Under the pieces are notes generated by a model. The model was not told the origin of the DNA, searched no databases, and saw only the letters and a list, made by a program, of their open reading frames with translations. From contig CABYVI010000003.1 in NCBI GenBank assembly GCA_902522415.1, positions 5,092-69,091 of the forward strand: DNA of 64,000 nt, read 5' to 3'. Positions 4,221 to 30,439 of the stretch are shown here, one piece after another (positions within the stretch are counted from its first letter, which is position 1; each line of letters starts with the position of its first letter). The stretch is from an uncultured SAR116 cluster alpha proteobacterium. Lineage in GTDB: Bacteria > Pseudomonadota > Alphaproteobacteria > Puniceispirillales > GCA-002684695. A program made the position numbers and the translations under genes.

Positions 4221-4541
4221 ATGGAAAATTTTATCACACCAGGCTTAGATCCAAAAACTTCTTTTGAAATAAGTTCGAATAAGACTAAAAAATTAAATGC
4301 AGACACTACAAGCTTAAATGAAGCAGCAGAGAGATTTGAGGCTTTATTTTTATCTCAAATGCTCAAATCAGCGAGAGCTGCAAAATTATCAGAAGATATA
4401 ATGGGCAACAATGCAACAGATACTTACTACGCAATGATGGATAATGAATTGGCAGAAAAATTATCAAAGGCAGGTAATTTTGGGATTGCAGAAGCTCTTA
4501 TCAGACAATTTGGTGGAAATGTAGAGGACAAAGATAAGTAA
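4221..4541 (+). CDS. flgJ: FlgJ-like rod-binding protein (rod-binding domain only, no muramidase domain)
   Basis: 106 aa; AAERFEALFLSQMLKSAR rod-binding motif; lies between flgI and flgK; stop overlaps the flgK ATG (TAATG). Confidence 0.7.
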   Translation: MENFITPGLDPKTSFEISSNKTKKLNADTTSLNEAAERFEALFLSQMLKSARAAKLSEDIMGNNATDTYYAMMDNELAEKLSKAGNFGIAEALIRQFGGNVEDKDK

Positions 4542-7500
4542 TGTCTAGTTTATTTGACATTGGTAAAAGTGCTGTTCAGTCATACCGTCAGGCATTGGCA
4601 GTAACTGGACAAAACATAGCTAATGTTAACACAGATGGATATAAAAGAAGAGAAGCTGACCTCAAAGAGGTTGGAGCTAGTAGTGGCAGTGTTACTTCAA
4701 CTGGTAATTCAGCAGGCCTTGGTGTTCGTGTAGAAAATATAAGAAGGTCATTTGATCAATTTTTATTAGATCGCTCAAGAAGTTCAATTGCAAATTATGA
4801 AAAACTAAAGTCTTACACAGATCAAATGAAGCAACTCGAAGATATTTTGCTCCCAGGTGACGCTGATATCGGTAGTTATATTGGTAGATTTTTTGGTGCT
4901 TTACAGGACATAGCTGCTAATCCTGGCGATCTTGCTCCTAGAACTGTTGCTCTTGAAGAGGGGAAAAGTCTGGCTGGTGCTTTTAGAAATCTATCTTTTC
5001 AACTAGAAGAAATGCAAAAAAATGGAAAATCTCAAGCTGATGATACTTGTTCGGCAATTAATATTGTTGTAACTCAATTAGTTGACGTAAATGAAAGGCT
5101 ACTATCTTCAAGTCTGGGAAGTTCTCCAAACTCAACTCTAGACTTAAGAGACAGGCTTCTTGAAGAATTATCAAAATTAACCGATATATCAGTTTCATAT
5201 AACGAGAGAAAAGACGTAACTGTAACAATTGGTAAAACAGGTGCAGGGCCAAAATTATTATCTGGGAAAATTGCAACAAAAATTGGAGTAGCAGATACGG
5301 GCGGTGTTATACAGGTTTTAATGGGTGCCGGAACATCAAACACTCCTACAAATCAAGTAACAGGTGGCGTTCTTGGAGGAGTTATAGACTCTTATGCCTT
5401 GATTGGTGATACCAATAGAGATATTGATAATCTTGCAGTTTTAATTTCTGAAACATTAAATGATCAGCATAAACAGGGTATTACTCTTGATGGAAAAGAG
5501 GGTGAAAATATTTTTGTAACCTCTGGTATGACTGTCAGTCCAGGTAGAGCAAACAGATCTTCTGTATCAGCAGAAATTGTTATAAGTGATATTGAAAAGC
5601 TTCCAAAGGGCCAACTTACAGCAAAATTTAATGAAGTTCAGAATAGATGGACACTATCTGGTTCATCTTTAGAAAACAATATTTTTGGAACGAGTGAAAT
5701 TAAAGGACCAGGTTTCTCATTAAATATTTTAGGCAAACCAACAGATGGAGACGAATTATCAACCACTCCACTTACTGGTGCAGCTTCAGGTATGCAATTT
5801 ATGTTGAGAAGGGCACAAGATTTTGCAGCTGCTTCAAAAACATTGGTTAGTGCAACAGTTTCAAATAAAGGAACTGCAGATATTACAGCAAGTACAGGAA
5901 AAATAAAAACGTCCGATAATCCTCCATTATTGAATAATGTATTTACAAATTCTAATTCTCCCCTAACAGCAACAAATTTTCTAAGTGATGGAGCTGTTTC
6001 TGCAATACCTACTGGATCACAAGAGGCGGATATTCTTAGTTTCAAAACTCAATCACAAATGAGTTTTCAATTAACTGAGGCCGAAATACCAACAACTACT
6101 TCACTGACACTCGAAGTAAATAGTGTTCCTCATGTATTTGACCTTACTTATTCAAGTGTATACCCGAAAGCAGTTGCATCAGAAAAATGGAAATCTTGCG
6201 GTGAAATTGCAACAGCTTTAAACAGAGGTATAATTAAAAATTCTAATTCACAAACACTTTCTGATTTAGGCCTTTTTGCCTCAGGATCTGGAGGAAGCAT
6301 AACGTTTGCATCATCTGAAAACGACTTCTCAGGCCAGTCAACTATTAGTTCAGGTGGCGGTACAATTTTAGGAATAAGCAAAGCATCAGCACTTCCATCA
6401 AATGTTCAGGTTTTTACAAGAGAGGGAAGGCATCTAGCTGGGACACCCCTTACGAAAGAAGATATTGCAAAACTTGTTACCATTGACAATGGCTTTAATG
6501 AGGGAGCAAGTTACAGAGCAGATTACATAAATTTAAGTGGTGATAAAGCATACAGAGGCTTGTCTTTAGAAAGAAAGACTGCAACAGGTGACCATGTAAT
6601 TACCTTGGGGTCTAACAGTAATTCGGTTACTGCAAATACATCAGGAATTGGTTCATCAATTGGTGCAACAATTACGACAGGAACAAATCACGGTTTCTCT
6701 ACTGGAGACACTGTTCAGTACCTCGCTAATAGTACTGCCCTAACTGGATTAACTGATAAAGCAGTATATAAAGTAGCATCTATTAATGGTACAAATCAAT
6801 TTACTCTCACAAAAACTGATGGAACAACACTTACTTACGGAGGTAGTAACGGCCATGCTAATGATAGTTTTAAACTTTTTAACGTTAATTCATCAGGTAT
6901 AATTCCATCTAAAACTATTTTCCCATCAAGTGCTGTATCTGCTTATAATGCAAGTATATCAATGTTTGGCGGTGAGAGCGGAAATATTGATATTCCAGCA
7001 GGTTCATCTGCAGGATTTTCTGCAAATAAAATAAATACTGACCTTGCAAATCTTGGCGTCCAAGCAGAAGCCATTACTAGGGTTGAATTGTCAATGGCAG
7101 AAATTGGTTCTCTGTCCTATGGTCAAACAAGAGTCAACCAGGGTTCTGGATCACCAGCTATAAGCTTATCATCTACTTCCACAAATGGTGCAGCAACTGG
7201 TGAAACAGAGTTTAAAGTTGGCGATATTATAAAATATGAAGCTGTTGATGACCATGCAACAAATGGTGGGCCTTTACAGGGATTAACTGAGTTTGCTGAA
7301 TATATGGTTGCAAGTGTTTCCTCTAACAGTATAACATTAAAAAATACAGATGGAACTTCATTAACCTATGGAAACACAGGCGGGGCAACAGGGGTTGCAT
7401 CTCATTTCGATAGTTTTACCTTGGTTAGAAGAACAGGCCAAGTAACATTAGACTTTGAGTCCAAGAACCAGGATGCAATCAATATTTCAGCTACAATTTC

Positions 7501-10500
7501 ATCTGATGATATGACCGATCTAGCAAAGAAAATTAATGAGCACTCTGCAAATACTGGAGTGACAGCATTTTTATCAGTTGATAAGAAAAAAGTGGTTCTT
7601 GAGAGTAAAGACGGTGACGATATAATGATGACAAATTTTTCATCATCAAGTCCACCACTTAATTTAAAATCACTAGGAGAAAACTTTGAAACTCTTGGTA
7701 ATGAGGTAAAATTAGATAATACTAACTTTGATGCAGCAAGATTTACTGGCTATGTTAAATTGAATGCTGGAGGATCATTTTCTTTAACAACAAACGCTGG
7801 TTCAAATAACTCAACAGTCTCTAGTACAACTGATATTTTTGAAAATAGCTTTATAGAAAAAAGCATGACACCAACTGGCGAGCAAATGACTCTAAAATTT
7901 GATGCATTTGAGGGTGCTGATGGAAATGGATCTTCAGTTGACGGTTCTATGGCTCTTGCTGCAGGTGGCGAGTATAAATTGACAATTCCTAATACTGGTT
8001 CAGGGACCTCATTCTCATCTACAGTCAAAACTAAAGATTTAGAAAGTATCACATCAAATACTGTCGCTGCAGAAATAGCAAAAAAATTACGCTCTGATAC
8101 ACTCATAGCTTCGGTATCAGGTAAAAGTTCAGTAAATGAATTACCTGAAGCAGGAGACAAGTTAGTTGTAAAATTTGCAGAGCAAAATTATACACTTACA
8201 ATGCTTGATAATGGACGTGATGCAGTGCCTGCAACTGCTACGTTAAGTGTAAGCAACGCAGATACAGTTGCAGCTGCAGGAAACCGAATTCATCTAATTT
8301 TATCAGCCGGCATGGAACCAGAAATTGATTTGGATTACACTGTTCAGGCAGGTCAAACTAATATTTCAAGTATAGTTTCAGGACTTAACACTGCTCTAAA
8401 TACTGCAGGAGCTTCTGATAAATACTCATTTTCATTCAGAGGAACCAATTTAATTTTATCTAGAAAGGATGGAGTTAATTTTCAATCATACAAGGGTGCA
8501 AATCAAACAACAAATATACTATTTTTTGATGGTGTTGATATTAGAACTGGAGCTGGTAGAGAGACTATTAATGGCGCAACAACAAATAAAACGCTAATCA
8601 CAACAGATGGGAAACTTTCTGTTGAGAGAGAAATTGAAATATCTGGTGGTGAAAAGAATAGGCTTAATGCTTATTTTGATGAAAATAAAAAGTTACAAAT
8701 TTTTGCTGGTGGGAGTCTTTCTGGACAGCAAATAATAATTCCTGATGATAACTCTGTTTCAGGTAATAGTAGTGCTGCCACTAGATTTGGAATAGATCGA
8801 GCAATAGGAACATTAACAGGAAATGAGATTGCAGTCCCTGCAACAACTTCGACTACGAATGTTAAAGTAGGTGATATTGATTATACTTTAACCATTAATC
8901 CAAATAATGGTGGTAAAGTAACTGCAGAATTAAAAGATGGAAATAATATTGTTCCAACTAACATATTACTCGATGCAACTGTAAACTGGATGAGCAATAT
9001 TATTACTTCAGATACAACGAGTATTGCATCTTCAGCTGGTGCAGTTATCACTTCTGATAGTGATCACGAATTTAAGGTTGGAGACAAAGTAAAATACTTT
9101 AAAGGAGGCACTGCACTTACTGGGTTAACACATAATACTGAATATACAGTTGCATCCATTGTAAAAAAATCTAGCTCTCAAGCTAATACGGTTGGCCTCA
9201 CGCGAGCTGCTAGTTCCACAATAACAACTGCTAATGCTCACGAGTTTAAGGTTGGAGACTTTGTAAAATACGTAAAAGGCGGGACGAATAACCTTCAAAG
9301 TCTGACTGATGGGGAGGTTTATAAAATAAAAGAGGTTGTTGGCACCAATCAATTTAAACTTCAAACAGCTGGTGGCAGTGACTTCACTTACGGTGGAACT
9401 GGTGGTAGTTCAGCAGATGCATTCATCCGATTTGACGGCTTTTCGTTAAAAAGTGCAGCAGGTGCAACCATTACTTACGGTGGTGGAAACGGCCACGCAG
9501 CTGATCAGTTTGTAAAATCAGAAAATATTAGAACCGCTGATACAACAGGGCAAACGAACAATACATCTGCAACAATAACAGTTGGTGAGGGTCACGGATT
9601 TAAAGTAGGAGATTCTGTGACTTATATTCCAGCGGGAACAAGCGTTCAAGGATTAGGGGCAAATATCAACTATAGAGTAAAAGCTCTTATTGGCTCAACT
9701 GGAATTTCGCTACAGACAACAGCAGGCGCTGATTTTGCTTACTTGGGAACAGATGGAAGTGCAAATGATGTTTTTGTAAAGGCTAACGGAAGAATATCAA
9801 TAAAGACCAATCCATATAGTAATAAGGAATATAAATTTGATCATACTGCTAACGCTGAGGCTCTAGGTATTAAAGTATCGGACTACAGAGTTAATGTTGA
9901 CAATGATAAATTAGTAATTGCATCCACTGAAGGAAAAGTTGTTTCTGCTGATACAACAGGAAGCAACACAAGCGTTAAAAGCTTAATTGGAAGCAATATT
10001 AATATTAAAAATGTTGGCAATGAGGATTTAATAATGATTGTCAATGGCGGTGGCGCAAGAAGTGTCGCAACAAGGTCTGACCCCCCTGCCCCAAATTATG
10101 AAGCAAAACCTTCAAACATTGACATCAAAGTTGCAAACGCTGAGGGTAGTGTTATCGAATTCCTTGATGCAACCACGGGTCATTCAATCGCTACAAGAAC
10201 ATTAGACACTGTAGGTAGAGCTGAAGCTGCTGGTTATAAAGTTGTTGTCAAAGGTAAAGGCCAGCTCGATGACAGTTTTAAAATATCAGACAATGCTGGT
10301 GGAACAGGTGACGCAAGAAACTTAGATGCCATGATAATGCTTCAAACTGAAGATGCAAATGGTCCTAATTCAGGTGGGTTCAGAGAAGTTTTTGACAATA
10401 TTGTCACAGGTGTAGGAGCATCAGTATTATCAGGCGGTCTATCTTTAGAGGCAGCTGAAGCAACAAAAGAAGCGGCAATTGCATCAGAACTAGAATTTTC

Positions 10501-10621
10501 TGGTGTGAGTTTGGACACTGAAGCTGCACAGCTTCTGGAGCAACAACAAGCATTTCAAGCTTCTGCAAGAATTCTATCAACTGCTAAACAACTATTTCAA
10601 ACATTACTAGACGTAGTGTAG
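4541..10621 (+). CDS. flgK: Giant hook-filament junction protein FlgK (HAP1), 2026 aa
   Basis: N-terminus SSLFDIGKSAVQSYRQALAVTGQNIANVNTDGYKRR and C-terminus EAAQLLEQQQAFQASARILSTAKQLFQTLLDV are FlgK-type. The ~1500-aa central region contains flagellin-IN-like motifs and five HGF-x-x-GD modules. Confidence 0.85.
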   Translation: MSSLFDIGKSAVQSYRQALAVTGQNIANVNTDGYKRREADLKEVGASSGSVTSTGNSAGLGVRVENIRRSFDQFLLDRSRSSIANYEKLKSYTDQMKQLEDILLPGDADIGSYIGRFFGALQDIAANPGDLAPRTVALEEGKSLAGAFRNLSFQLEEMQKNGKSQADDTCSAINIVVTQLVDVNERLLSSSLGSSPNSTLDLRDRLLEELSKLTDISVSYNERKDVTVTIGKTGAGPKLLSGKIATKIGVADTGGVIQVLMGAGTSNTPTNQVTGGVLGGVIDSYALIGDTNRDIDNLAVLISETLNDQHKQGITLDGKEGENIFVTSGMTVSPGRANRSSVSAEIVISDIEKLPKGQLTAKFNEVQNRWTLSGSSLENNIFGTSEIKGPGFSLNILGKPTDGDELSTTPLTGAASGMQFMLRRAQDFAAASKTLVSATVSNKGTADITASTGKIKTSDNPPLLNNVFTNSNSPLTATNFLSDGAVSAIPTGSQEADILSFKTQSQMSFQLTEAEIPTTTSLTLEVNSVPHVFDLTYSSVYPKAVASEKWKSCGEIATALNRGIIKNSNSQTLSDLGLFASGSGGSITFASSENDFSGQSTISSGGGTILGISKASALPSNVQVFTREGRHLAGTPLTKEDIAKLVTIDNGFNEGASYRADYINLSGDKAYRGLSLERKTATGDHVITLGSNSNSVTANTSGIGSSIGATITTGTNHGFSTGDTVQYLANSTALTGLTDKAVYKVASINGTNQFTLTKTDGTTLTYGGSNGHANDSFKLFNVNSSGIIPSKTIFPSSAVSAYNASISMFGGESGNIDIPAGSSAGFSANKINTDLANLGVQAEAITRVELSMAEIGSLSYGQTRVNQGSGSPAISLSSTSTNGAATGETEFKVGDIIKYEAVDDHATNGGPLQGLTEFAEYMVASVSSNSITLKNTDGTSLTYGNTGGATGVASHFDSFTLVRRTGQVTLDFESKNQDAINISATISSDDMTDLAKKINEHSANTGVTAFLSVDKKKVVLESKDGDDIMMTNFSSSSPPLNLKSLGENFETLGNEVKLDNTNFDAARFTGYVKLNAGGSFSLTTNAGSNNSTVSSTTDIFENSFIEKSMTPTGEQMTLKFDAFEGADGNGSSVDGSMALAAGGEYKLTIPNTGSGTSFSSTVKTKDLESITSNTVAAEIAKKLRSDTLIASVSGKSSVNELPEAGDKLVVKFAEQNYTLTMLDNGRDAVPATATLSVSNADTVAAAGNRIHLILSAGMEPEIDLDYTVQAGQTNISSIVSGLNTALNTAGASDKYSFSFRGTNLILSRKDGVNFQSYKGANQTTNILFFDGVDIRTGAGRETINGATTNKTLITTDGKLSVEREIEISGGEKNRLNAYFDENKKLQIFAGGSLSGQQIIIPDDNSVSGNSSAATRFGIDRAIGTLTGNEIAVPATTSTTNVKVGDIDYTLTINPNNGGKVTAELKDGNNIVPTNILLDATVNWMSNIITSDTTSIASSAGAVITSDSDHEFKVGDKVKYFKGGTALTGLTHNTEYTVASIVKKSSSQANTVGLTRAASSTITTANAHEFKVGDFVKYVKGGTNNLQSLTDGEVYKIKEVVGTNQFKLQTAGGSDFTYGGTGGSSADAFIRFDGFSLKSAAGATITYGGGNGHAADQFVKSENIRTADTTGQTNNTSATITVGEGHGFKVGDSVTYIPAGTSVQGLGANINYRVKALIGSTGISLQTTAGADFAYLGTDGSANDVFVKANGRISIKTNPYSNKEYKFDHTANAEALGIKVSDYRVNVDNDKLVIASTEGKVVSADTTGSNTSVKSLIGSNINIKNVGNEDLIMIVNGGGARSVATRSDPPAPNYEAKPSNIDIKVANAEGSVIEFLDATTGHSIATRTLDTVGRAEAAGYKVVVKGKGQLDDSFKISDNAGGTGDARNLDAMIMLQTEDANGPNSGGFREVFDNIVTGVGASVLSGGLSLEAAEATKEAAIASELEFSGVSLDTEAAQLLEQQQAFQASARILSTAKQLFQTLLDVV

Positions 10622-10630: not shown

Positions 10631-11917
10631 ATGCAAGTAAGTACAAAATTATTCAATCAACAATCAGTTAATCAGTTCGGAAAACTGACCAGTGAAATTC
10701 AAGATCTTCAGGCAAAGGTTTCAACTGGGAAAAGTATTTTAAAATCTTCAGATGATCCAGTTGCAGCAGTTGAGTTATCTGCAGCCAAAGAGCAAAAAAA
10801 TATTTTGGAAAGGTTCAGAAGGAATATTGACTCTGCTCAAAGAAGATTAGATTTATCCGATGGTTCTATGCAGCAAGCAATCAACGTTATGACAAGAATT
10901 TCAGAATTAGCTATTCAAGCTGCCAACGACACAAATGGCGTTCCTGAGAGAATTGCCATTAGAACTGAAGTAGAGCAACTCGCAAATGTAATGCTTGAAA
11001 TAGCAAATACTAGAGATGCTCAAGGACAAAGTTTATTTGCTGGATACCACACTAATACTCAAGCTTTCATCAAAAACGTTGACGGAACATTCACTTATAA
11101 TGGAGATCGAGGGAAACACACTCTTCAGATTTCTGAATCAATGAACGTTGCAACAAGTATTGATGGAGGCACAGCTTTTGAAACAGTAGACACAGGTTCT
11201 GGCAGAAAAAGTGTTTTTGATATTATTACAAATATTGTAAACACAATTAACAATGCAGATGCTTTATCTAGCCAAGGATCTGCACGTGCGATGGCGTCAA
11301 TAGATTTCAAAGTACCCAGAGATCCTCAAAATTGGTCTTTTGTTTTAACAGGTGGATTAGGATCTTCAACTGTAGACATAACAGTTTCTGATGGAAACTA
11401 CGATGATACAGTTACTAAAATTAATGCGCTTACTTCAGTAACTGGCGTAAAAGCAAGTTTAGACAATGACACAGGCAGAATAACTTTAACGGATAGCCAA
11501 AGTCGAACTATAAAAATTTCTAATATTGAAATTGAGGGAACTGATTTTGCGACTGGAGAGATAAATAGTTATATTGATTTTAATACTCTTGAGGGATCTG
11601 GCGCAGAAGTTGGTTCTTCTCGAAGGTTGACTGATACAAATCAATTAATATCAAGTTCAGTTGAGGATGTAAAAAAGGCAACAGATCATCTGAGTTTACA
11701 AAGATCATTTTTGGGCGCTCAGCTTAATAAAGCTGAACTTCAAAAAGATTCTATTGACCAAAGGATCATGGCAACATCTGAAAGAGTTTCTGATCTTGGA
11801 GACGCAGACTTAGCTGCAATCGTTACTCAAATTCAGAGTTTGTTGATTAACAGAGATGCTGCTCAACAAGCATATGCAAAAATAAGTCAAAACAGCCTGT
11901 TTGATTTCCTAAAATAG
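10631..11917 (+). CDS. flgL: Hook-filament junction protein FlgL (HAP3)
   Basis: 428 aa; flagellin-like N-terminus (SSDDPVAAVE...RISELAIQAANDT) and C-terminal helix; follows flgK. Confidence 0.8.
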   Translation: MQVSTKLFNQQSVNQFGKLTSEIQDLQAKVSTGKSILKSSDDPVAAVELSAAKEQKNILERFRRNIDSAQRRLDLSDGSMQQAINVMTRISELAIQAANDTNGVPERIAIRTEVEQLANVMLEIANTRDAQGQSLFAGYHTNTQAFIKNVDGTFTYNGDRGKHTLQISESMNVATSIDGGTAFETVDTGSGRKSVFDIITNIVNTINNADALSSQGSARAMASIDFKVPRDPQNWSFVLTGGLGSSTVDITVSDGNYDDTVTKINALTSVTGVKASLDNDTGRITLTDSQSRTIKISNIEIEGTDFATGEINSYIDFNTLEGSGAEVGSSRRLTDTNQLISSSVEDVKKATDHLSLQRSFLGAQLNKAELQKDSIDQRIMATSERVSDLGDADLAAIVTQIQSLLINRDAAQQAYAKISQNSLFDFLK

Positions 11918-11934
11918 TAAAATTAAAAAAGTGT

Positions 11935-11960
11935 TAAACATTTTTTTATATTGACGTTTA
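11935..11960 (+). promoter_or_regulatory. Sigma-28-like promoter of flagellin 1 (TAAA-N14-GACGTTTA)
   Basis: TAAACATTTTT...GACGTTTA. The same TAAACATTTTT box and the same 14-nt spacing occur at 14335-14360 before flagellin 2. Resembles TAAA-N15-GCCGATAA. Confidence 0.45.
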
Positions 11961-11967
11961 TAAATAA

Positions 11968-12024
11968 TGAAGTGGTCAGCGCCCTTCAAAAAATTAATAT
12001 TATTTAGTCAATGAAGGGATAGTT
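11968..12024 (+). promoter_or_regulatory. Flagellin 1 leader: hairpin with GGTCAGCG loop plus alternative RBS-sequestering pairing
   Basis: TGAAG-TGGTCAGCGCC-CTTCA hairpin. CCCTTCA can instead pair with the RBS repeat TGAAGGG at 12012-12018. Confidence 0.5.
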
Positions 12025-13527
12025 ATGACTTCCATCAATAGTGACCAAATGTCTGCAATGGTTCTCGCGAGCCTTAATAAGTCTAATGCAACTATGCAAG
12101 AATCTATGCAAAGGTTATCTACAGGTAAAAGAATTAACCATGCAGGTGACGATGCTGCTGGTCTGTCTATCTCAGCAAAACTCAGAGCGCAGGTTGATAG
12201 TTTAAATGCAGCAATTAAAAATTCATCAGATGCATTGGCAATGGTGAGTACGATTGAAGGTGCACTCGTTGAAACTACGACTATACTCCAAAGAATGAGA
12301 CAATTATCTGTTCAGTCTTCCTCTGATACCAACACAGGAAATGACAGAACTTATCTTCAAGACGAAGTAAATCAATTAATTACTGAAATTAATAGAATTT
12401 CTACTAATACAGAATTTAACTCAACAAAACTTTTAGACGGAACTTTTACTGATAAAAATATTCAAATAGGAACAGCATCTAATCAAGTTTTAAGACTAGG
12501 TGTAAGTGCTACAGATTCTACAAAATTAGGAGCATATCAACTAGATAGTGTGGATGAGAGTATTGCTCCAGAAGATACTCATGCATCTGCTAAAACTGTT
12601 TTAAATGCTTTGTATGATGCCACAGCAGATTACGTTGTTAAAGGTACTTTTGGCACGTTTACAGCTTCAGTTGATGCTGGAGCTGATGCAAGAGATGTTG
12701 CTTCATCTTTTAATTTAATAGGAGGGAATACAGGCGTTAACGCGACAGCACTTACTCGTGCGAAAATGACCGTTTCTGCAGCAGCAACATTCAGTTTTAC
12801 ATTTGAGGGTAAAAGTACAACAACTTCTCAAATAACAGCTACTGTAACTTCTGCGACTGACTTGACTGCAATAAAAGATGCTATTAATGCAGTATCGGGT
12901 TCTACAGGTATTTCAGCTGCTTTGACATCTGATAAATCTGGGGTAGAAATTACACAAGCAGAGGGATACGATATTATTATCGGTGATGTATCAACTGGTT
13001 CAACTGACGCTAACTTACTAGTTACGGCCATGGATATGGATGGAAACCTTGATACAGGAAATACGAGAACATTAGATGGTGACGGAACAACTGGTGACTC
13101 AACAGCGATTGTTGGTACAGTTCGCCTTTCAAGTCAAAACGCTTATACGGTTTCGCCAGGTCATGCGAATAATCACTTTTCTGCTGCTACTACAGAATTG
13201 ACTGCATCACATAGTACAATTTCAGCAGTTTCTCTTACAACAAAGGAAGGTGCGACAAAAGCTATGTCAGTTATTGATGGTGCTTTGTTAATGATATCAG
13301 GTATTAGATCAAATATGGGTTCAGCTAACAATAGACTACAATCTACTATCGATAATCTAAGTAATATTGCAGTGAACGCTCAAAAATCACTTTCAACAAT
13401 AGAAGATGCTAACTTTGCTGAAGAAACTGCAAAACTTACAAAAGCACAAATACTTGCGAAAGCAGCTACATCTATGCTTGCTCAAGCGAATAAAGCAAAA
13501 GAAACAATGCTTGCATTGCTGCAATAA
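12025..13527 (+). CDS. fliC: Flagellin (500 aa)
   Basis: RLSTGKRINHAGDDAAGLSIS N-terminus, NRLQSTIDNL...AQANKAKETMLALLQ C-terminus; central flagellin-IN-like motif DLTAIKDAINAVSGSTGISAAL. Confidence 0.95.
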   Translation: MTSINSDQMSAMVLASLNKSNATMQESMQRLSTGKRINHAGDDAAGLSISAKLRAQVDSLNAAIKNSSDALAMVSTIEGALVETTTILQRMRQLSVQSSSDTNTGNDRTYLQDEVNQLITEINRISTNTEFNSTKLLDGTFTDKNIQIGTASNQVLRLGVSATDSTKLGAYQLDSVDESIAPEDTHASAKTVLNALYDATADYVVKGTFGTFTASVDAGADARDVASSFNLIGGNTGVNATALTRAKMTVSAAATFSFTFEGKSTTTSQITATVTSATDLTAIKDAINAVSGSTGISAALTSDKSGVEITQAEGYDIIIGDVSTGSTDANLLVTAMDMDGNLDTGNTRTLDGDGTTGDSTAIVGTVRLSSQNAYTVSPGHANNHFSAATTELTASHSTISAVSLTTKEGATKAMSVIDGALLMISGIRSNMGSANNRLQSTIDNLSNIAVNAQKSLSTIEDANFAEETAKLTKAQILAKAATSMLAQANKAKETMLALLQ

Positions 13528-13557
13528 AAATTTAATTGTTCATATAAGAATTTTTAT

Positions 13558-14100
13558 TTATTTATCAGATGGCTTCAAAGATATAGCATCAAAAATTGTA
13601 AATTCTTCAGTAGCCAGATCTCTTAAAAAATCAATATCTTTCTCGTCGTCAATTTTCCATCCACTGGGTGACGGTTTGCTTAAATCAGATCTCAGTGAAT
13701 ACATATAAGACTTAAACATTTTTATAATGCCTCTTTCTTCGTAATTACGATCTCTTTCTCCATCAAAAATTGATCCAAGAAGCGGTTTGCGATTTCTGAT
13801 TTTACCATTATCAAAGTTAATCGTATTATATATGAAACCGTCTAGGTACTTAGTTGCATCTGAACCCGCCTCTACTTCTGCTAATATCCTAATTATATCT
13901 TCTGCAATTGATGAGATCTCAATTGGATTGACTTCGTCATATTTTTCTAAAAGAGCTTTAGAATATCTTCTTGCCACTAAGTCGATGGGTATATCCTTGA
14001 CAAGAAAATCTCTAGCTGTAAGACCAATACAAGCTGCGTAAACCCATTGAGGGCAATATACAGCCATTTTACCTCCACTAGATAATAAGTTTGATAACAT
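13558..14100 (-). CDS. Hypothetical protein (180 aa) on the opposite strand inside the flagellin array
   Basis: Intact ORF, convergent with flagellin 1; no recognisable motif. Confidence 0.4.
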   Translation of the reverse strand: MLSNLLSSGGKMAVYCPQWVYAACIGLTARDFLVKDIPIDLVARRYSKALLEKYDEVNPIEISSIAEDIIRILAEVEAGSDATKYLDGFIYNTINFDNGKIRNRKPLLGSIFDGERDRNYEERGIIKMFKSYMYSLRSDLSKPSPSGWKIDDEKDIDFLRDLATEEFTIFDAISLKPSDK

Positions 14101-14334
14101 AATAATACACTTCGTTTAAAAATTATAGAACAAAGTAACTATTGCAAATTATATGCCCAAACAGTCACTTTTTCTAAATAAAGCTGAAAAGAAAAAAACA
14201 TTTAACTCTACATTATTATTTAGGCAATTTTAAACAAAATTTTTGTGAAAAAACCCATAATAAACGACACAAAAAAAATTTGTTTAGAAATAAAAAAAAA
14301 TAATAAAATCAATAACTTTTTACTAAAAATAAAC

Positions 14335-14360
14335 TAAACATTTTTACTATATGCCGTTCA
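14335..14360 (+). promoter_or_regulatory. Sigma-28-like promoter of flagellin 2 (TAAA-N14-GCCGTTCA)
   Basis: TAAACATTTTT...GCCGTTCA, same architecture as 11935-11960. Confidence 0.5.
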
Positions 14361-14370
14361 TTTACTTGTA

Positions 14371-14434
14371 CGGAGGTGGTCAGCGAAAACCTTCTCCGCG
14401 TTTAAATTTAATTAACTCGGAAAGGAGACAAAAA
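14371..14434 (+). promoter_or_regulatory. Flagellin 2 leader: hairpin with GGTCAGCGAAAA loop and anti-SD arm
   Basis: CGGAGGT-GGTCAGCGAAAA-CCTTCTCCG. The 3' arm CCTTCTCCG is also complementary to the RBS region CGGAAAGGAG at 14418-14427. Confidence 0.5.
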
Positions 14435-15952
14435 ATGGTCTCAGTGAATACTAATATTGCGTCAGTTGACGCTAGAAACACATTAATGGGTAATAATGTA
14501 ACGATGGAAAAAGCATTCGAAAGACTTTCAAGTGGAAAGAGAATTAACAGCTCAAGTGATGATGCTGCGGGTCTTCAAATTGCAAATAGCCTAACATCTC
14601 AAATTAATGGTCTAAAAATGGCAGCAAAAAATGCTGGTGATGGTATTTCATTAGTAAATACAGTTGATGGAGCTTTAAGCGAAGCAACTGACATTTTACA
14701 AAGAATGCGTGAACTTGCTGTTCAATCTTCTTCAGATACAAATGCTGGACAAGATAGAGTTTTTATCCAAGAAGAAATAAACGCACTTAATACAGAACTT
14801 AATAGAATTTCATCTACCACTCAATTTAATGGGGTGAACGTTCTTGATGGCACATTCGGTGATGTATCACTTCAGGTAGGTTATGATCCAAGCCAAACTG
14901 TTAATATGAGTGTTACTTCTTCAGACTCTGCAACATTAGGTGCATACCAGGATACATCAACAGTCGAAACATTGGCCGTAGTTGATACATATGCATTAGC
15001 AACCGCAGGTTTAACGACAACTATTGCTGACGCAGGTGATTACACAGTTTCAGGTTTTTTTGGTTCTGATACAGCATATATCGCAGCTGAGGCAGGGGCA
15101 AGAGACACAGCTGCAGCTTTCAACTTAATTGCAGGTAATACTGGCATTACAGCAACTGCAGAAACCAGAGCAAGACTTACTGTAAGTGCTGCCGCAACAT
15201 TAACTTTTGACCTTTATGGCAAAAGTTCAACTAAGTCTTCAGTGACAGCAGTTATTTCTGACACATCTGATTTATCAAACTTGAAGGATGCCATTAACGC
15301 AGTCAGTGGATCCACTGGGATTTCCGCAACTCTTACATCTGATAAAGCAGGCGTCAATATAGTTAATCCAGAGGGTTATACGATATTTTTTGCTGATGTG
15401 ACAGCTGCTGGCGGTACTGATGCAGATCTACAGGTTGCAAATTTAACTGTCGACGCTGCTGGTGCTGAAACAACAGCTAACCAAGTTGCAATGAAAGGTG
15501 ATGCAGCTACTGATGATAGTACATATGTATTAGGTCAAGTTACATTGTCTTCAGATAAAGCATTTGCTTTAAGTTCTGGAAATGCTGCAAACCATTTTGC
15601 AACAGATACTTCAGTTCAAACTAGTGCGTTGAGCCAACTAGGCGATATTAACCTTAAAAATATCCATGGTGCTCAAAAAGCTTTAGCGATAATTGATAAA
15701 GCCATTAATATGATCGATACAACACGTTCAACAATGGGTGCTTTAAATAATCGTCTTGAAAGTACTATTAACAATCTGAATAATATTCAGGTAAAAACGG
15801 AAGCGTCTCTTTCCAGAGTAATGGATGCTGATTATGCAGAAGAGACAACTTCCTTATCTAAATCTCAAGTCTTAACTCAGGCAGCTACTGCTATGCTAGC
15901 GCAAGCAAACCAAGCTCCTCAAGGAGTATTAAGATTACTTCAGGCAGGATAA
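14435..15952 (+). CDS. fliC: Flagellin (505 aa; true start MVSVNTN, not the ORF-track ATG at 14351)
   Basis: AAAGGAGA RBS 7 nt before ATG 14435; RLSSGKRINSSSDDAAGLQIA ... AQANQAPQGVLRLLQ. Confidence 0.93.
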   Translation: MVSVNTNIASVDARNTLMGNNVTMEKAFERLSSGKRINSSSDDAAGLQIANSLTSQINGLKMAAKNAGDGISLVNTVDGALSEATDILQRMRELAVQSSSDTNAGQDRVFIQEEINALNTELNRISSTTQFNGVNVLDGTFGDVSLQVGYDPSQTVNMSVTSSDSATLGAYQDTSTVETLAVVDTYALATAGLTTTIADAGDYTVSGFFGSDTAYIAAEAGARDTAAAFNLIAGNTGITATAETRARLTVSAAATLTFDLYGKSSTKSSVTAVISDTSDLSNLKDAINAVSGSTGISATLTSDKAGVNIVNPEGYTIFFADVTAAGGTDADLQVANLTVDAAGAETTANQVAMKGDAATDDSTYVLGQVTLSSDKAFALSSGNAANHFATDTSVQTSALSQLGDINLKNIHGAQKALAIIDKAINMIDTTRSTMGALNNRLESTINNLNNIQVKTEASLSRVMDADYAEETTSLSKSQVLTQAATAMLAQANQAPQGVLRLLQAG

Positions 15953-16004
15953 AGGCCGCCATTGGATTTGAGAAACTAATGGTAGTTTAGTCTACCTACT
16001 ACGG

Positions 16005-16048
16005 AGCCCCAATTTAGAAATGACCGTCTAAGTTGGGGCTAAAAAAAA
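16005..16048 (+). other. 14-bp hairpin (loop AATGACCG) followed by an A8 run, in the flagellin 2/3 intergenic region
   Basis: AGCCCCAATTTAGA-AATGACCG-TCTAAGTTGGGGCT, one G.U pair; no U-run, so not a canonical terminator. Confidence 0.5.
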
Positions 16049-16084
16049 CTCAAGATGAAAGTCTTGAACAACAAGGAGATAAAT

Positions 16085-17587
16085 ATGACCTCAATAAATA
16101 GTGACTTCATGTCGCAATTGGCTTTAAGAAGCCTCGGACAATCGTCCAATACAATGACCCAAGCAATGGAGCGTTTATCAACAGGAAAAAGAATTAATTC
16201 TGCTGCTGATGATGCTGCTGGACTTGGTATTGCTACTAAGCTAAGAGCACAAGTAAATAGTTTAGAGGCTGCTGGAAGGAATGCTTCTGACGCTTTAGCA
16301 CTTATCGGTACAATTGATGGTGCATTAGAAGAGTCAGGTGAAATTCTTCAAAGAATGCGTGAATTGGCAGTTCAATCTGCATCAGATACAAATACTGGTA
16401 CAGATAGAACTTTCATTCAAGATGAAATAAATCAACTCTCTCAAGAGTTAAACAGAATTTCTACAGCAACTGAGTTTAACAATGTGAAATTGCTTGACGG
16501 TACATACACTGATAAAGCAATTCAAATTGGTACAGGTGCAAACCAAGTATTCAGATTGGGAGTTTCTGCGACAGATGCTTCAACACTAGGTGCGTATCAA
16601 TTATCTTCAACAACAGAATCTATGGATCCAGCTGCTGAAGATACTCACGCATCTGCAATTACAGCATTTGCAGCATTATTTCATGCAGACGCAGATTATA
16701 CAGTTAAGGGTAGCTTTGGAACTGCAACTGCTTCTGTAGCTGCTGGTGCTGATGCTCGTGATGTGGCTAGAACATTCAATTTGCTCTCAGGTACAACAGG
16801 TATTAATGCAACTGTCACAACCAAAGCACAGCTTAAAGTTACTGCTGCCGAGACTTTTAGTTTTACACTTCAGGGTAAAAGTTCAGATAAATCTACAGTT
16901 AATGCAACTATAACTAGTATAAGTGATTTGACAGCTTTGAAAGACGCTGTAAATGCTGTTTCAGGACAAACTGGAATTGTTGCTTCATTAACTGAAGACT
17001 TATCAGGAGTTAATCTTACACAAGAAGAAGGTTACAATATTGTTGTAGGTGACGCGACTGCAGCTTCTGGAGCGATGACAGTCCAAGAAATGAAATCAGA
17101 TGGAACTGTAACAGGTTCAGCAAGAACATTAGACGCAGATGCAACAGCTGCAGACTCTACAGCAGTTGTAGGGCAAGTCACTTTGTCTAGCCATAAGGCC
17201 TTCACTGTAACTTCTGGAAATGCTGCTAACCATTTTGCTACTGATACAGCCGCACAAAACTCAAGTTTATCTACAGTAGGCAGCCTTAGCCTTAAAACTC
17301 AAGCTGGTGCAACATCTGCTATTGCAGTTCTTGACGGAGCAATGGCTCAAATTTCTGAAATCCGAGCAGAAATGGGTGCAGCTGAAAACAGACTAGAGTC
17401 TACAGTTGATAACATCAGTAACGTTGCTGTAAATGTTCAAAGATCTCTATCTTCAGTTGAAGATGCGAATTTTGCTGCTGAGACATCCCAGTTAACTAAG
17501 TCTCAGATACTTCAGCAAGCAGCTACTTCAATGCTTGCACAAGCAAATAAAGCAAAGCAAACAATGCTTGTACTACTTCAAGGTTAA
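16085..17587 (+). CDS. fliC: Flagellin (500 aa; start MTSINSD)
   Basis: AAGGAGA RBS before ATG 16085; close paralogue of flagellin 1 throughout, including the central domain. Confidence 0.93.
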   Translation: MTSINSDFMSQLALRSLGQSSNTMTQAMERLSTGKRINSAADDAAGLGIATKLRAQVNSLEAAGRNASDALALIGTIDGALEESGEILQRMRELAVQSASDTNTGTDRTFIQDEINQLSQELNRISTATEFNNVKLLDGTYTDKAIQIGTGANQVFRLGVSATDASTLGAYQLSSTTESMDPAAEDTHASAITAFAALFHADADYTVKGSFGTATASVAAGADARDVARTFNLLSGTTGINATVTTKAQLKVTAAETFSFTLQGKSSDKSTVNATITSISDLTALKDAVNAVSGQTGIVASLTEDLSGVNLTQEEGYNIVVGDATAASGAMTVQEMKSDGTVTGSARTLDADATAADSTAVVGQVTLSSHKAFTVTSGNAANHFATDTAAQNSSLSTVGSLSLKTQAGATSAIAVLDGAMAQISEIRAEMGAAENRLESTVDNISNVAVNVQRSLSSVEDANFAAETSQLTKSQILQQAATSMLAQANKAKQTMLVLLQG

Positions 17588-17658: not shown

Positions 17659-17674
17659 TGGCATGGTATTTGCT
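17659..17674 (+). promoter_or_regulatory. Sigma-54 promoter of the 802-aa flagellin
   Basis: TGGCAT-GGTAT-TTGCT, 40 nt upstream of ATG 17714. Confidence 0.7.
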
Positions 17675-17713
17675 CATTGGACGTTGACCTCAAAATAAAA
17701 TAAAGGTGCAACA

Positions 17714-20122
17714 ATGAGTATTTTAACAAATTTAGCGGCTTTAAAATCGCTGTATCACATAAATCAGAATGAAGGTGAATTCTCTACTTCAGTAGAAAGA
17801 GTGTCTTCTGGTAAAAGAGTAAATAACGCAGGCGATGATGCTGCAGGCGCATCAATCATCAATAGAATGACATCTCAGGTACAGGGTATGAGCGTTGCAA
17901 TAAGAAATGCTGGAGATGCTATTTCTATGGCTCAAGTAGCTGAAGGCGCACTCGATGAAACAACAGAAATTTTACACAGACTGAGAGAAATAGCTGTTCA
18001 GTCTGCTAATGGAACTTACAGCGGCGCGAATAGAGTTGCACTAAACGCCGAAGTTGTTGCATTAAAAACAGAGTTATTAAGAATCGCTGAATCTACAAAA
18101 TTTAATGATGTAAAATTATTAAATGGGCAATTTCAAGATACTACATTTGCTATTGGTTATGATGAAAGTCCCGGTCATACACACTCATTAAGTATTGAGT
18201 CTGTAAAGCCAGATGACCTTGGTATGTGGACAATTACAACCGAACAGGAAAATACTGCCACTCTTAAAACAAGTGGAATGGGAAATTATGGAGAAGCTGC
18301 AAATATAGACACTGCAGCTGATCATTTATTTGAAACAGGTGATATTATTACTTATGAACAGGGACCAGCTGCTACAAGTATTCCAGTTCCAGGTCTAGTA
18401 GACGGGAAAAGTTATAAAGTGACAGTTGTTGACTCTGATTCATTTACTCTTACACATCTTGATGGATCAAAGGTTAAATATGGCGCAATCTCAAATTTTG
18501 GCACACCATCAAATGCTAAATTTCATTTACAAAGTATCTCTAATGCACCAACAGTAGGCTTGTCCAAAGGTTCTTACGCAGCCACTGGGGGAACTGATCA
18601 ATCAGCACCAGCATCAGAGGTTTTAAAAACAGAAGATGTTATGGTCCACGGACATGTTGGTTCATCTGAAGTACAGTTAAGAACTGGAATGACAGCTCTT
18701 GAAATTGCTAATGCAGTATCAAATATGGATTCACTTACCGGTGTTCGTGCTTCAGCAGTAACAAATGCTCGAATAACAGTATCACCAAGCGATAATACTG
18801 ATGATAAGCATGTGATTGCATTTGATTTGCAGGGTATGAATACAACTACACCAGTAAAAATTTCAGCAACCATAGGATTTGGTACAGGTGACGAAGTTCA
18901 TTCAGCAGACCTCTCTGATCTAAGAGATAAAATTAATGGTTTCACAGGCACAACAGGAATTTATGCAAAACTTTCATCAGACAAAAGCTATATTGATATA
19001 AAATCACCAGATGGATATGATGTTGTAATTGACAATGTGGATATGCCAACTGACACCGGCACAACGTTAACCCAAGCACTTGTTAACGCGAGTGGAGCAA
19101 ATACGAGTGATACAATTACCTCAGCATTAGCTCATGGATTTCAAGTAGGTGACATGATTAAGCTAACGGATGTCCATGGTGAAACAGGACTTGTTGGAAT
19201 AGATATGGAAACAACCTATTTTGTCAAAACTGCTCCAACATCTACAACCTTTACTTTAGCAACAGGTTCGCCAGATGGAACAACTGTTGATATTACAACA
19301 ACCAACAACGGTCATTTAGAATTTACTAAATTAGAAAAAACACTTAACCTTCAGACACTTGACAGAGACCTTAATGTAAAAGGTGGCAAAGTAAAGTTAA
19401 TGGATAAAGACATTGAATTACAAGGCTCTGGAGTTGGTGCTGTTATGACATCAGTAGCGTCAAGTGCATCAAATGCAAATATTACCTGCAGCAATGACCA
19501 TAGGTTGCAAGTTGGAGATGTTGTAAAATATACTGTAGGAAGTGTAGTTATTGCTGGATTGACAGATGGTGAATTCTACAAAGTTAAGGCTACATCATCT
19601 GATACAGTTTTTACATTAGAGAATTTAGATGGAACCGATCCTACTTATGGTGGCTCTGGAACTGGTGGCACATTTACTAAAGTAGTATCAAATGAAAATT
19701 CATTGCGACTAACAGGTGAAGTTCAATTTGAATCTGCTTATACATTTACTGTTGTTCCAGCAGTTCAGGACTCTTTATTCAGAGCAGCACCACCTGCAGC
19801 AAACTTAAATAAAGTTTCAGATCTTGATGTTTTAACAGTTGAAAAGTCACATAAATTTCTTACAGCTCTTGATGGAGCTATTAAAAGAATTGACGCAGAA
19901 CGTGGTGACCTTGGTGCGACAATGAATAGAATGCAACATACAATTGATAATTTATCAAATGTAATTGTTGGGACTAAATCAGCACGTGGCAGAATTGAAG
20001 ATGCAGACATGGCTGCAGAAACTGCTAATCTAGCAAAAAATCAAATTCTCCAGCAAGCAGCAACCGCAATGCTTGGTCAAGCAAACCAATCAATGCAAAC
20101 AATTCTTACACTTCTAAGATAA
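17714..20122 (+). CDS. fliC: Large flagellin (802 aa) with three HGF-x-x-GD-type modules in the variable region
   Basis: RVSSGKRVNNAGDDAAGASII N-terminus, DLGATMNRMQHTIDNL...GQANQSMQTILTLLR C-terminus; flagellin-IN-like motifs; modules at about 18300-18532, 19108-19330 and 19465-19686. Confidence 0.9.
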   Translation: MSILTNLAALKSLYHINQNEGEFSTSVERVSSGKRVNNAGDDAAGASIINRMTSQVQGMSVAIRNAGDAISMAQVAEGALDETTEILHRLREIAVQSANGTYSGANRVALNAEVVALKTELLRIAESTKFNDVKLLNGQFQDTTFAIGYDESPGHTHSLSIESVKPDDLGMWTITTEQENTATLKTSGMGNYGEAANIDTAADHLFETGDIITYEQGPAATSIPVPGLVDGKSYKVTVVDSDSFTLTHLDGSKVKYGAISNFGTPSNAKFHLQSISNAPTVGLSKGSYAATGGTDQSAPASEVLKTEDVMVHGHVGSSEVQLRTGMTALEIANAVSNMDSLTGVRASAVTNARITVSPSDNTDDKHVIAFDLQGMNTTTPVKISATIGFGTGDEVHSADLSDLRDKINGFTGTTGIYAKLSSDKSYIDIKSPDGYDVVIDNVDMPTDTGTTLTQALVNASGANTSDTITSALAHGFQVGDMIKLTDVHGETGLVGIDMETTYFVKTAPTSTTFTLATGSPDGTTVDITTTNNGHLEFTKLEKTLNLQTLDRDLNVKGGKVKLMDKDIELQGSGVGAVMTSVASSASNANITCSNDHRLQVGDVVKYTVGSVVIAGLTDGEFYKVKATSSDTVFTLENLDGTDPTYGGSGTGGTFTKVVSNENSLRLTGEVQFESAYTFTVVPAVQDSLFRAAPPAANLNKVSDLDVLTVEKSHKFLTALDGAIKRIDAERGDLGATMNRMQHTIDNLSNVIVGTKSARGRIEDADMAAETANLAKNQILQQAATAMLGQANQSMQTILTLLR

Positions 20123-21624: not shown

Positions 21625-21640
21625 TTTTCAGAAGGTTTAA

Positions 21641-23833: not shown

Positions 23834-23834
23834 A

Positions 23835-28367: not shown

Positions 28368-28424
28368 AAAAAATATTAAAAATTCTTAAAAGTTTTATAC
28401 AAATCTCCGTTACTATATATGAGA

Positions 28425-28440
28425 CTATTTCGCTGACCTC
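28425..28440 (+). other. 16-nt sequence exactly complementary to the loop of sRNA copy 2, displayed in the hairpin GACTAT/ATAGTC
   Basis: CTATTTCGCTGACCTC is the reverse complement of GAGGTCAGCGAAATAG at 30448-30463. Confidence 0.8.
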
Positions 28441-28442
28441 AT

Positions 28443-28478
28443 AGTCCCTCCATATATTAATGGAGGGACTTTCACTTT
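28443..28478 (+). terminator. Probable intrinsic terminator of the 27732 transcript
   Basis: AGTCCCTCCA-TATATTAA-TGGAGGGACT followed by the T-rich TTCACTTT. Confidence 0.5.
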
Positions 28479-28494
28479 ATATTGTAATATGATT

Positions 28495-28510
28495 AGGCAT
28501 AAATATTGCA
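28495..28510 (+). promoter_or_regulatory. Sigma-54-like promoter upstream of the TPR gene at 28544
   Basis: AGGCAT-AAATA-TTGCA. Confidence 0.55.
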
Positions 28511-28543
28511 CATATCTATTGGTAAAACTTAGATGTGTGAAAA

Positions 28544-30163: not shown

Positions 30164-30172
30164 TTTGTTGTT

Positions 30173-30188: not shown

Positions 30189-30197
30189 CAATATAAA

Positions 30198-30429: not shown

Positions 30430-30439
30430 AATCATAAGT

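Follow-up and report, generated by a model that had tools for sequence, protein, structure and literature searches.

Flagellar control is a textbook transcriptional cascade, and its control at the RNA level is a recent theme that comes from work in E. coli, Campylobacter and Vibrio. Translation of flagellin is coupled to assembly in C. jejuni (flaA) and B. subtilis (hag) by CsrA and FliW, which act on a leader hairpin and the Shine-Dalgarno (SD) sequence; CsrA recognizes GGA motifs, and in other species small RNAs (sRNAs) serve as its decoys. In the rpoS messenger RNA (mRNA), a leader segment sequesters its ribosome-binding site (RBS); the sRNAs DsrA and RprA activate translation by pairing with the anti-SD strand itself. 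Anti-sRNAs or sponges, among them SroC for GcvB and 3'ETS-leuZ for RyhB, pair with the functional region of another sRNA, titrate it, and are under separate transcriptional control. In E. coli, two sigma28-dependent sRNAs pair with the fliC mRNA. C. jejuni carries FlmE (CJnc230, RpoN-dependent) and FlmR (CJnc170, FliA-dependent), which have opposing effects on filament synthesis, FlmE targeting flgM and a regulator and not flagellin leaders (PMC11187230). Together with these E. coli and C. jejuni sRNAs, the closest described systems include FlaX of Vibrio cholerae, a class III, RpoN-dependent sRNA that is cut from the flaA 3' untranslated region, binds ProQ, pairs with the flaB flagellin mRNA leader at several sites including the RBS, and sets the order and composition of flagellins (PMC11879080). 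Here we analyze the flagellar cluster of a low-GC (33%) SAR116/Puniceispirillales alphaproteobacterium, contained in a 64-kb stretch of contig CABYVI010000003.1 (the window, whose coordinates are used throughout), and describe in it a hairpin loop that is common to the 5' leaders of two flagellin mRNAs and to a predicted family of sigma54-dependent sRNAs (loop-sRNAs), and that is complementary to a separate, likewise predicted sigma28-type small RNA (anti-loop RNA).

Three conclusions are drawn. On comparative grounds, the leader of flagellin 1 is a conserved RNA switch that appears able to hide its own RBS. Compensatory changes between genes provide strong evidence that the anti-loop RNA and the loop-sRNAs pair in vivo. 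On balance, we also lean towards the view that the loop would be an RNA-RNA docking site that links the translational switch to a sponge-type sRNA circuit across the sigma54-to-sigma28 transition. The kinds of parts (leader switch, base-pairing sRNA and sponge) are already known; the families and their arrangement are new, in that one hairpin loop is common to leaders and decoy sRNAs, would be read one sigma tier later by an antisense RNA, and has undergone compensatory evolution between genes.

Like FlaX, the SAR116 sigma54 sRNAs are predicted to have two conserved complementary sites in a flagellin leader, in this case at the start of the flagellin-3 leader and at its start codon. Unlike FlaX, they are free-standing, with their own sigma54 promoters, in two to three tandem genes approximately 10 kb from the flagellin genes. 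Neither an antisense or sponge partner nor mimicry of the sRNA by a leader has been described for FlaX, the comparison being one of descriptions. As with FlmE and FlmR, the SAR116 flagellar hierarchy includes one sRNA class of the sigma54 and one of the sigma28 tier, but mutual pairing is unreported for FlmE and FlmR, in whose paper (PMC11187230) the term 'sponge' does not occur, whereas the two SAR116 classes are complementary over 12-17 nt and co-evolve. The arrangement also departs from SroC/GcvB and 3'ETS-leuZ/RyhB, since what is shared in SAR116 is a structured hairpin loop that two mRNA leaders carry as well. The decoy therefore reproduces how the site is displayed and not just its sequence, and the system is embedded in a sigma-factor cascade. 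CsrA-type control finds no support in these data. Unlike the sites of the CsrA-FliW system, the SAR116 loops ((U/A)GGUCAGCG...) carry no GGA, each sRNA has a single hairpin, and the decoy logic appears to be RNA-RNA; csrA and fliW were not found among the open reading frames (ORFs) scanned in the window, and the small ORFs adjoining the flagellins and sRNAs gave no Pfam or NCBIfam match to FlaF or FlbT. The rpoS case differs in that the SAR116 complementary RNA pairs beside the anti-SD strand, and activation by simple strand competition is therefore not predicted. No match to Rfam 15 was obtained at the gathering threshold for the whole window, and at E<=10 the regions 28300-30700 and 11900-14460 gave only chance-level, unrelated (eukaryotic or other) families, none of which lay on the elements. 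Full-text literature searches returned no paper on SAR116 or Puniceispirillales sRNAs. The elements are short and well defined, and are candidates for the RNA family databases, which now lack them.

The four flagellin paralogues of the window start at 12025, 14435, 16085 and 17714; flagellins 1 and 2 have sigma28-type promoters and flagellin 4 a sigma54 promoter. The leaders of the first two comprise the following features:

11934-11960, + strand: sigma28-type promoter of flagellin 1 (TTAAAC...-N-GACGTTTA), kept in all orthologous leaders
11968-11988, + strand: 5'-terminal hairpin ('ON' state), 92.9% paired across 17 leaders, loop invariant
11982-11988, + strand: anti-SD strand CCCUUCA, common to both competing helices and directly abutting the loop octamer
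12012-12018, + strand: SD box UGAAGGG, pairing with 11982-11988 in the 'OFF' state
12025-12032, + strand: start codon and ACUUC (12028-12032), which pairs with GAAGU of the 5' arm (11969-11973) in the OFF state
14334-14437, + strand: flagellin-2 promoter (14334-14360) and leader, with hairpin 14371-14398 and octamer 14378-14385

A preliminary description of this DNA had named a promoter box, a hairpin and a competing helix over the RBS of flagellin 1; all of its features were found in place, and its reading proved largely right. The promoter box, TAAACATTTTT-N7-GACGTT at 11935-11958, is indeed shared with flagellin 2 at the same spacing (TAAACATTTTT-N7-GCCGTT, 14335-14358), and can be assigned to the sigma28 type, resembling CTAAA-N15-GCCGTTAA. 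The strict sigma28 motif matches only the promoters of flagellins 1 and 2 and of the anti-loop RNA, plus a single antisense position inside a coding sequence. The predicted -10 element of flagellin 1 ends at 11960, 7 nt ahead of the hairpin, and the hairpin is thus predicted to lie at the extreme 5' end of the transcript; a transcription start 3' of the hairpin, which would have spoken against the description, is not what this element predicts. In the DNA, TGAAG (11968-11972) and CTTCA (11984-11988) flank the loop TGGTCAGCGCC (11973-11983), in which the octamer occupies 11974-11981; in the RNA, the arms UGAAG and CUUCA enclose UGGUCAGCGCC. An AATGAAG box is duplicated (11966-11972 and 12010-12016), its second copy running into the SD box, 6 nt ahead of the ATG.

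Orthologues of flagellin 1 were gathered from genomes and metagenomes by protein similarity and not by motif, and 17 distinct leaders were aligned. The 13 nt TGGTCAGCGCCCT are invariant in all of them, and lie approximately 50 nt upstream of the start in every orthologue with upstream DNA. Double substitutions affect two pairs of the 5' hairpin (A-U becoming G-C, and G-C becoming A-U), and the anti-SD:SD helix, 93.3% paired, has three covarying pairs; for both helices, the observed pairing was unmatched by any shuffle or slid register. Column 22 of the 3' arm (U to C) covaries both with column 6 of the 5' arm and with column 54 of the SD box, six sequences being altered on both sides and one forming G-U with both partners. 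Covariation of one column with two alternative partners is the signature expected of mutually exclusive helices, which the preliminary description had proposed over the RBS. CCCUUCA can pair either with UGAAG of the 5' arm or with UGAAGGG of the SD box, and both helices show compensatory changes, as expected of an SD-sequestering switch. The additional pairing between the 5' arm and codons 2-3 retains four to five of its five pairs in all 17 leaders.

The fold in which the SD is hidden is the minimum-energy structure in 17/17 orthologues, with values from -15.8 to -22.1 kcal/mol for OFF and from -11.2 to -15.9 kcal/mol when the 5' hairpin (ON) is forced. The SD-hidden state, and not the 5' hairpin, is thus the predicted ground state of all orthologues. 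An exact look-up of the flagellin-1 sequence of the window returned no record.

Flagellin-2 leaders follow the same design, with a 5' hairpin CGGAGGUGG-UCAGCGAAAA-CCUUCUCCG and an SD region CGGAAAGGAGA (14418-14428) before the ATG at 14435. Their main stem, CGGAG/CUCCG, is invariant and shows no covariation. The earlier suggestion of a functional loop on co-varying stems is hence borne out for flagellin 1, within its 17 leaders, and extends to flagellin 2 by comparison of the two paralogues alone. In the L002-type lineage, the 3' arm carries an insertion peculiar to that lineage, GGUCCUCUCC, which matches an equally lineage-specific spacer between SD and AUG, GGAGACGACC; the SD-sequestered fold of the flagellin-2 leader is then again the minimum (-25.2 versus -19.0 kcal/mol).

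A hairpin of 5 bp, taken alone, is trivial; the octamer is not. Counting it, as had been suggested, gave five exact copies of GGTCAGCG in the window versus 0.15 expected, a number reached by none of 100 shuffles, while one-mismatch variants stood at chance level (11 versus 8 expected). In the SAR116 comparison DNA gathered in the analysis (298,943 bases, approximately 299 kb), 71 of the 72 copies fall inside flagellin leaders, sRNAs or the antisense RNA, so the octamer is not frequent in random contexts.

Two of the copies outside the leaders belong to a tandem array of sRNA genes whose third member carries a variant:

30173-30275, + strand: loop-sRNA A; sigma54 promoter TGGCATAAATATTGC (30173-30187), hairpin (30199-30230), linker AAUCUCCGAUGG (30231-30242), terminator (30242-30275)
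30414-30523, + strand: loop-sRNA B; sigma54 promoter (30414-30428), hairpin (30441-30471), linker (30472-30483), terminator (30483-30523)
30537-30648, + strand: loop-sRNA C, with loop variant GGUCUGCG; sigma54 promoter (30537-30551), hairpin (30565-30596), linker (30597-30608), terminator (30608-30648)

Each unit consists of a sigma54 promoter, 12 nt, a hairpin of the form GUUCCUAG-AGGUCAGCGAAA(A)UAG-CUAGGAAC, the single-stranded and invariant AAUCUCCGAUGG, and an intrinsic terminator, with fold z-scores as low as -4.8 (loop-sRNA B). The sigma54 motif TGGCAY-N5-TTGC has nine matches in the window versus 0.13 expected, and all of them precede flagellar genes or the three sRNAs. Related loci were reached through homologues of FliS, TPR-sulfotransferase and flagellin 4; in nearly all of these lineages two copies of the sRNA adjoin the gene of a 126-amino-acid protein and FliS, the short contig L056 holding a single copy. 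In loop-sRNA C, GGUCUGCG replaces GGUCAGCG at 30574-30581, leaving one mismatch to the antisense seed and a duplex of -22.4 kcal/mol, compared to -30.8 kcal/mol without the mismatch; this copy may be a weaker decoy or a decaying one. We also considered the linker as an anti-SD sequence against flagellins 1 and 2, and rejected it: the match is of 5-7 bp, is unconserved across lineages, and ranks seventh or lower among 56 initiation regions. The best initiation-region match of the linker (flagellin 4) was discarded, since much of it is upstream of the predicted transcription start.

The fifth copy of the octamer, at 28431-28438, is on the minus strand, so that the + strand reads CGCUGACC, the complement of the loop. 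It lies within a transcription unit of its own:

28386-28413, + strand: sigma28-type promoter of the anti-loop RNA (TTAAAAG...-N-TCCGTTAC), with an equivalent at the same distance in every lineage
28420-28478, + strand: anti-loop small RNA (ends approximate), with seed CUAUUUCGCUGACCUC at 28425-28440, octamer complement at 28431-28438 and terminal hairpin at 28443-28470

The seed is accompanied by a sigma28-type promoter and a hairpin terminator, both on the + strand; this holds for every lineage, the unit occupying one of two places in the genome. We therefore rejected the alternative of a fourth, minus-strand member of the hairpin family at 28431-28438. In distant lineages, the unit lies between two + strand sRNA genes; its -10 element there is of the GACGTTAA type, and its terminator is a clean hairpin followed by a run of U. 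From this position, -10 element and terminator it follows that the anti-loop RNA must be an independent + strand transcript of approximately 60 nt with its seed at the 5' end. The sequence AATCTCCG occurs both here and in the sRNA linker; because it forms part of an overlap with the -10 element (TCCGTTAC), we took this for a coincidence. We note that the gene at 28544, which belongs to the block of TPR genes described below, has its own sigma54-like promoter directly after the anti-loop RNA (AGGCATAAATATTGC, one base off TGGCAY).

The distant lineages provide the evidence for pairing in trans. There, the sRNA loop reads AGGUCAGCAAAAUUG and the antisense seed AAUUUUGCUGACCU: at loop position 9, G has become A and its antisense partner C has become U; at position 14, A has become U and the partner U has become A. 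Contiguous Watson-Crick pairs between antisense and sRNA number 12-17 for cognate and 6-10 for non-cognate combinations. In an A-type lineage, represented by one contig, the leaders keep GGUCAGCG and the sRNAs have GGUCAGCA, and the antisense U opposite the changed position pairs with both. The two RNAs thus have, by sequence, what is expected of an sRNA and its anti-sRNA, namely their own promoters and terminators and an extended complementarity with two compensatory double changes.

In the window, the anti-loop seed is complementary to the entire loop of loop-sRNA B (16 contiguous bp); the match shortens to 11 bp at the flagellin-2 leader and to 8 bp at that of flagellin 1. When both strands were searched, the best partners of the anti-loop RNA were sRNAs B and A, one antisense site in the FlgK coding region, which is presumably a chance match, and the flagellin-2 leader. 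Among 56 translation-initiation regions, flagellin 2 ranked first (-23.1 kcal/mol) and flagellin 1 second (-19.1 kcal/mol).

These data can be assembled into a model that starts from the flagellin-1 leader. The stretch 11934-12032 would hold a sigma28-transcribed 5' leader acting as a two-state translational switch. In the ON state, the 5'-terminal hairpin would capture the anti-SD CCCUUCA and leave the SD free; in OFF, the predicted ground state, CCCUUCA would pair with the SD box and the 5' arm with codons 2-3. The octamer GGUCAGCG would be exposed in both, as a hairpin loop in ON and as an internal loop in OFF, and would most likely dock the trans-encoded, sigma28-dependent small RNA of 28420-28478, whose 5' seed carries CGCUGACC. 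Sequence and comparison establish the hairpin, the competing helix, the complementarity, the promoters and terminators, and the co-evolution of the antisense RNA with the sRNAs; the docking of the antisense RNA on the flagellin-1 loop, and its effect, are inferred. The sigma54 sRNAs, which would pair with the anti-loop RNA over the whole loop (16 nt), should compete with the leaders as a sponge or target mimic; since they bind it far better, they would buffer the antisense RNA while the sigma54 tier is active.

In co-folds, the octamer pairing and the anti-SD:SD helix form a single unbroken run of pairs. Because the octamer is contiguous with the anti-SD strand, the docked duplex can be expected to stack upon the anti-SD:SD helix, and so to favour the SD-hidden state or lock it; a geometric argument suggests that an 8-bp duplex would be strained within the 11-nt hairpin loop of the ON state. 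As a guess, docking would lock or prolong OFF, or trigger decay. Flagellin translation would then be favoured right after the sigma28 switch and damped later, with synthesis limited once the levels of the sigma54 sRNAs fall. To this repressive direction we assign roughly half of the confidence that we place in the docking itself, and the sign could equally be the opposite, the antisense RNA activating a leader that is OFF by default while the sRNAs set a threshold. Activation by simple strand competition was considered and rejected, the antisense RNA not being complementary to the anti-SD and the SD-hidden fold remaining favoured when the octamer is blocked (-15.8 kcal/mol).

Several points weigh against docking on the leaders. 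The anti-loop RNA was found through the complement of the octamer, and its 8-bp match to flagellin 1 is thus not independent evidence; that site, at -19 kcal/mol including flanks, barely exceeds the best background sites (-17 kcal/mol). The leader octamer never varies, so that pairing between leader and antisense RNA comes without covariation, and the covariation within the leaders probably represents only two to three independent events in closely related marine populations. In two-dimensional energies, blocking of the octamer leaves the balance between ON and OFF unshifted, and the proposed effect relies on arguments of stacking and geometry. Finally, in the lineage of the window the antisense terminator has a weak U-tract.

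The loop-sRNAs also have complementary sites in flagellins 3 and 4:

15952-15966, + strand: AAGGCCGCCAUUGGA at the stop codon of flagellin 2 and the beginning of the flagellin-3 leader, with 15 contiguous bp to the invariant sRNA segment UCCGAUGGCGGUCUU
16006-16093, + strand: hairpin of the flagellin-3 leader (16006-16039, loop AAUGACCG) followed by the start codon region A-UGACCUCA (16085-16093), each with the complement of GGUCA
17659-17692, + strand: sigma54 promoter of flagellin 4 (17659-17673) and predicted mRNA 5' end UGACCUCA (17685-17692)

The pairing of AAGGCCGCCAUUGGA with UCCGAUGGCGGUCUU is the best non-self site among 25,588 windows, at -27.8 kcal/mol (mean -7.3, standard deviation 3.0, next-best -21.8). 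It is kept in all seven distinct flagellin-3 leaders, even where the remaining leader is unrelated; the loci with the site, beside the window, are L001, L004, L028, L035, L044, L045/L055 and L057. The flagellin-3 hairpin retains a UGACC-type loop on at least three unrelated stems across lineages, and AUGACCUCA at the flagellin-3 start is invariant in 10 of the 10 loci that hold this start, despite synonymous freedom. At flagellin 4, the predicted mRNA 5' end (U)GACCUCAAAA is kept in four lineages, the bases just upstream being variable; this 7-8-mer is common to the flagellin-4 5' end and the antisense seed. The flagellin-3 loop and start and the flagellin-4 5' end are complementary to the GAGGUCA part of the sRNA loop, and TGACCTCA has six copies versus 1.3 expected.

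Flagellin 3 is thus probably a direct mRNA target of the sigma54 sRNAs through two seeds, and the conserved 15-bp site suggests that it may be their main one. The sigma28 antisense RNA, in turn, looks like an optimised mimic of the sRNA target sites. A more general scheme, which we put forward tentatively and consider rather doubtful, is that each of the four flagellin mRNAs of this SAR116 clade, like each of its two sRNA classes, bears one of a pair of complementary words, and that these RNAs form a competing-RNA circuit independent of protein. Word one, (G[A/U])GGUCAGCG, would be carried by the flagellin-1 and -2 leaders and the sigma54 sRNAs; word two, (CGC)UGACC(UCA), would be present in the sigma28 antisense RNA, in the leader loop and at the start codon of flagellin 3, and at the 5' end of the flagellin-4 mRNA. 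If this were true, leaders, regulators and decoys would titrate one another, and would set the order and stoichiometry of the flagellin paralogues across the sigma54-to-sigma28 transition.

The same observations have to be weighed against readings in which the loop binds something else, or nothing. It could be recognised by a dedicated protein that binds RNA and regulates flagellin translation, as CsrA or FlbT do, with the sRNAs acting as protein sponges of the CsrB/RsmY type and the antisense RNA regulating only the sRNAs. This would account for a leader octamer that stays invariant even in lineages where the sRNA loop and antisense RNA have changed, for its constant display in a hairpin loop at the 5' end of a transcript, and for the several tandem decoy copies, which resemble protein-titrating sRNAs; and as loop blocking leaves the two-dimensional fold balance as it is, a structure-specific binder would explain switching more easily. 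However, positive evidence for such a protein is nil: the loops lack GGA, each sRNA has one hairpin and not many repeated sites, and CsrA, FliW, FlbT, FlaF and other RNA-binding families were not among the small ORFs scanned in the 64-kb cluster. The flanks of the loop, for which a common protein site would offer no reason, are accounted for by a complementary RNA with compensatory changes over the whole loop, and we regard the protein as unlikely. Less probable still is that the leader loop has no partner in trans and is conserved in cis, for the OFF fold or for stability of the 5' end, its likeness to the sRNAs reflecting common ancestry. Indeed, the minimum-energy fold of the window's leader has GGUCAGC paired in part to GUUAUGAC, around the start codon, the switch could act kinetically during transcription with no factor at all, and the sRNAs do resemble duplicated flagellin-2 leaders, with the same loop followed by a UCUCCG identical to the leader 3' arm. 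Yet the opposing strand of spacer and start varies (AUAGUUAUGACU, UAAACCAUGUCU, UUAGCCAUGGCU), as does the predicted loop pairing among leaders, while the eight loop bases are fixed, and ancestry alone does not fix 8 nt while stems and spacers drift and the flagellins are only 65% identical.

Direct kissing between mRNAs, in which the GGUCA loops of flagellins 1 and 2 would contact the flagellin-3 UGACC loop or start, or the flagellin-4 5' end, and couple translation of the paralogues, the antisense RNA not being the partner that matters, seems very unlikely to us. It would fit the UGACC (or GACCAC) loop that flagellin 3 retains on unrelated stems, the synonymous sites held invariant in AUGACCUCA, the excess of TGACCTCA, and a 7-nt match in the A-type lineage between the flagellin-3 loop GACCACU and AGUGGUC of the flagellin-1 leader. 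But these matches are of 5-7 bp and cover GGUCA, the invariant GCG being complemented by the antisense RNA alone, and the sRNA loop (GAGGUCA) fits the sites better than the leader loops do. As for the GGTCAGCG inverted repeat being a DNA operator for a transcription factor just 3' of flagellar promoters, its placement, always within approximately 10-25 nt of a promoter, be it sigma28 or sigma54, is what one would expect, but we give the idea hardly any credence. Stems stay paired through G-U wobbles (L031), which are relevant only in RNA; the 3' arm covaries also with the distant SD box; leader and sRNA stems are wholly different and have no common palindrome; and the antisense copy is complementary, not identical, and has its own terminator.

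Should the docking model hold, SAR116, a clade abundant among marine bacteria, would have its first described system of this kind, and the system would show an RNA sponge wired between two sigma tiers, where it would time or limit the costliest flagellar protein. Such control would be of relevance to a small-genome oligotroph with few protein regulators.

The related sequences all belong to one clade. Two more distant relatives with 50-54% identity at flagellin 4 and 40-48% GC have sigma54 promoters and no RNA elements within 10 kb, so that the range of these elements appears narrow. At flagellin 1, the window shares 99% identity with a contig from a single-cell genome. The gene order of the window is a giant FlgK, FlgL, the four flagellins, genes for TPR proteins, sulfotransferases and glycosyltransferases, then FliD, FliS and two sigma54 activators. 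Near the RNAs are small uncharacterised ORFs (126, 96, 180, 75, 81 and 211 amino acids), for which Pfam and NCBIfam scans were uninformative. The 126-amino-acid protein (30659-31039, minus strand) is conserved and always lies between the sRNA genes and FliS; it has no Pfam, NCBIfam or PDB match, a PDB sequence search having been uninformative. A sigma54 motif directed to FliS (30920-30934, + strand) is embedded in its coding region in all lineages.

Among the structural genes, FlgK (4541-10621) is unusually large, with 2026 amino acids, and flagellin 4 (17714-20122) has 802; the inserted middle regions of both give weak matches to E1_FCCH domains. Between the flagellins and FliD/FliS, the segments 20185-25391 and 27732-30163 encode TPR proteins fused to sulfotransferase or glycosyltransferase-9 domains, together with a methyltransferase-like gene; this block is probably a flagellin modification island. 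Further downstream, an operon at 61417-63455 encodes a ThiF/E1-like protein (379 amino acids), a 98-amino-acid protein without family match, and a protein with UQ_con and a zinc ribbon/IBR-like region (209 amino acids); it is a bacterial cassette for ubiquitin-like conjugation and has no relation to the flagellar RNAs.

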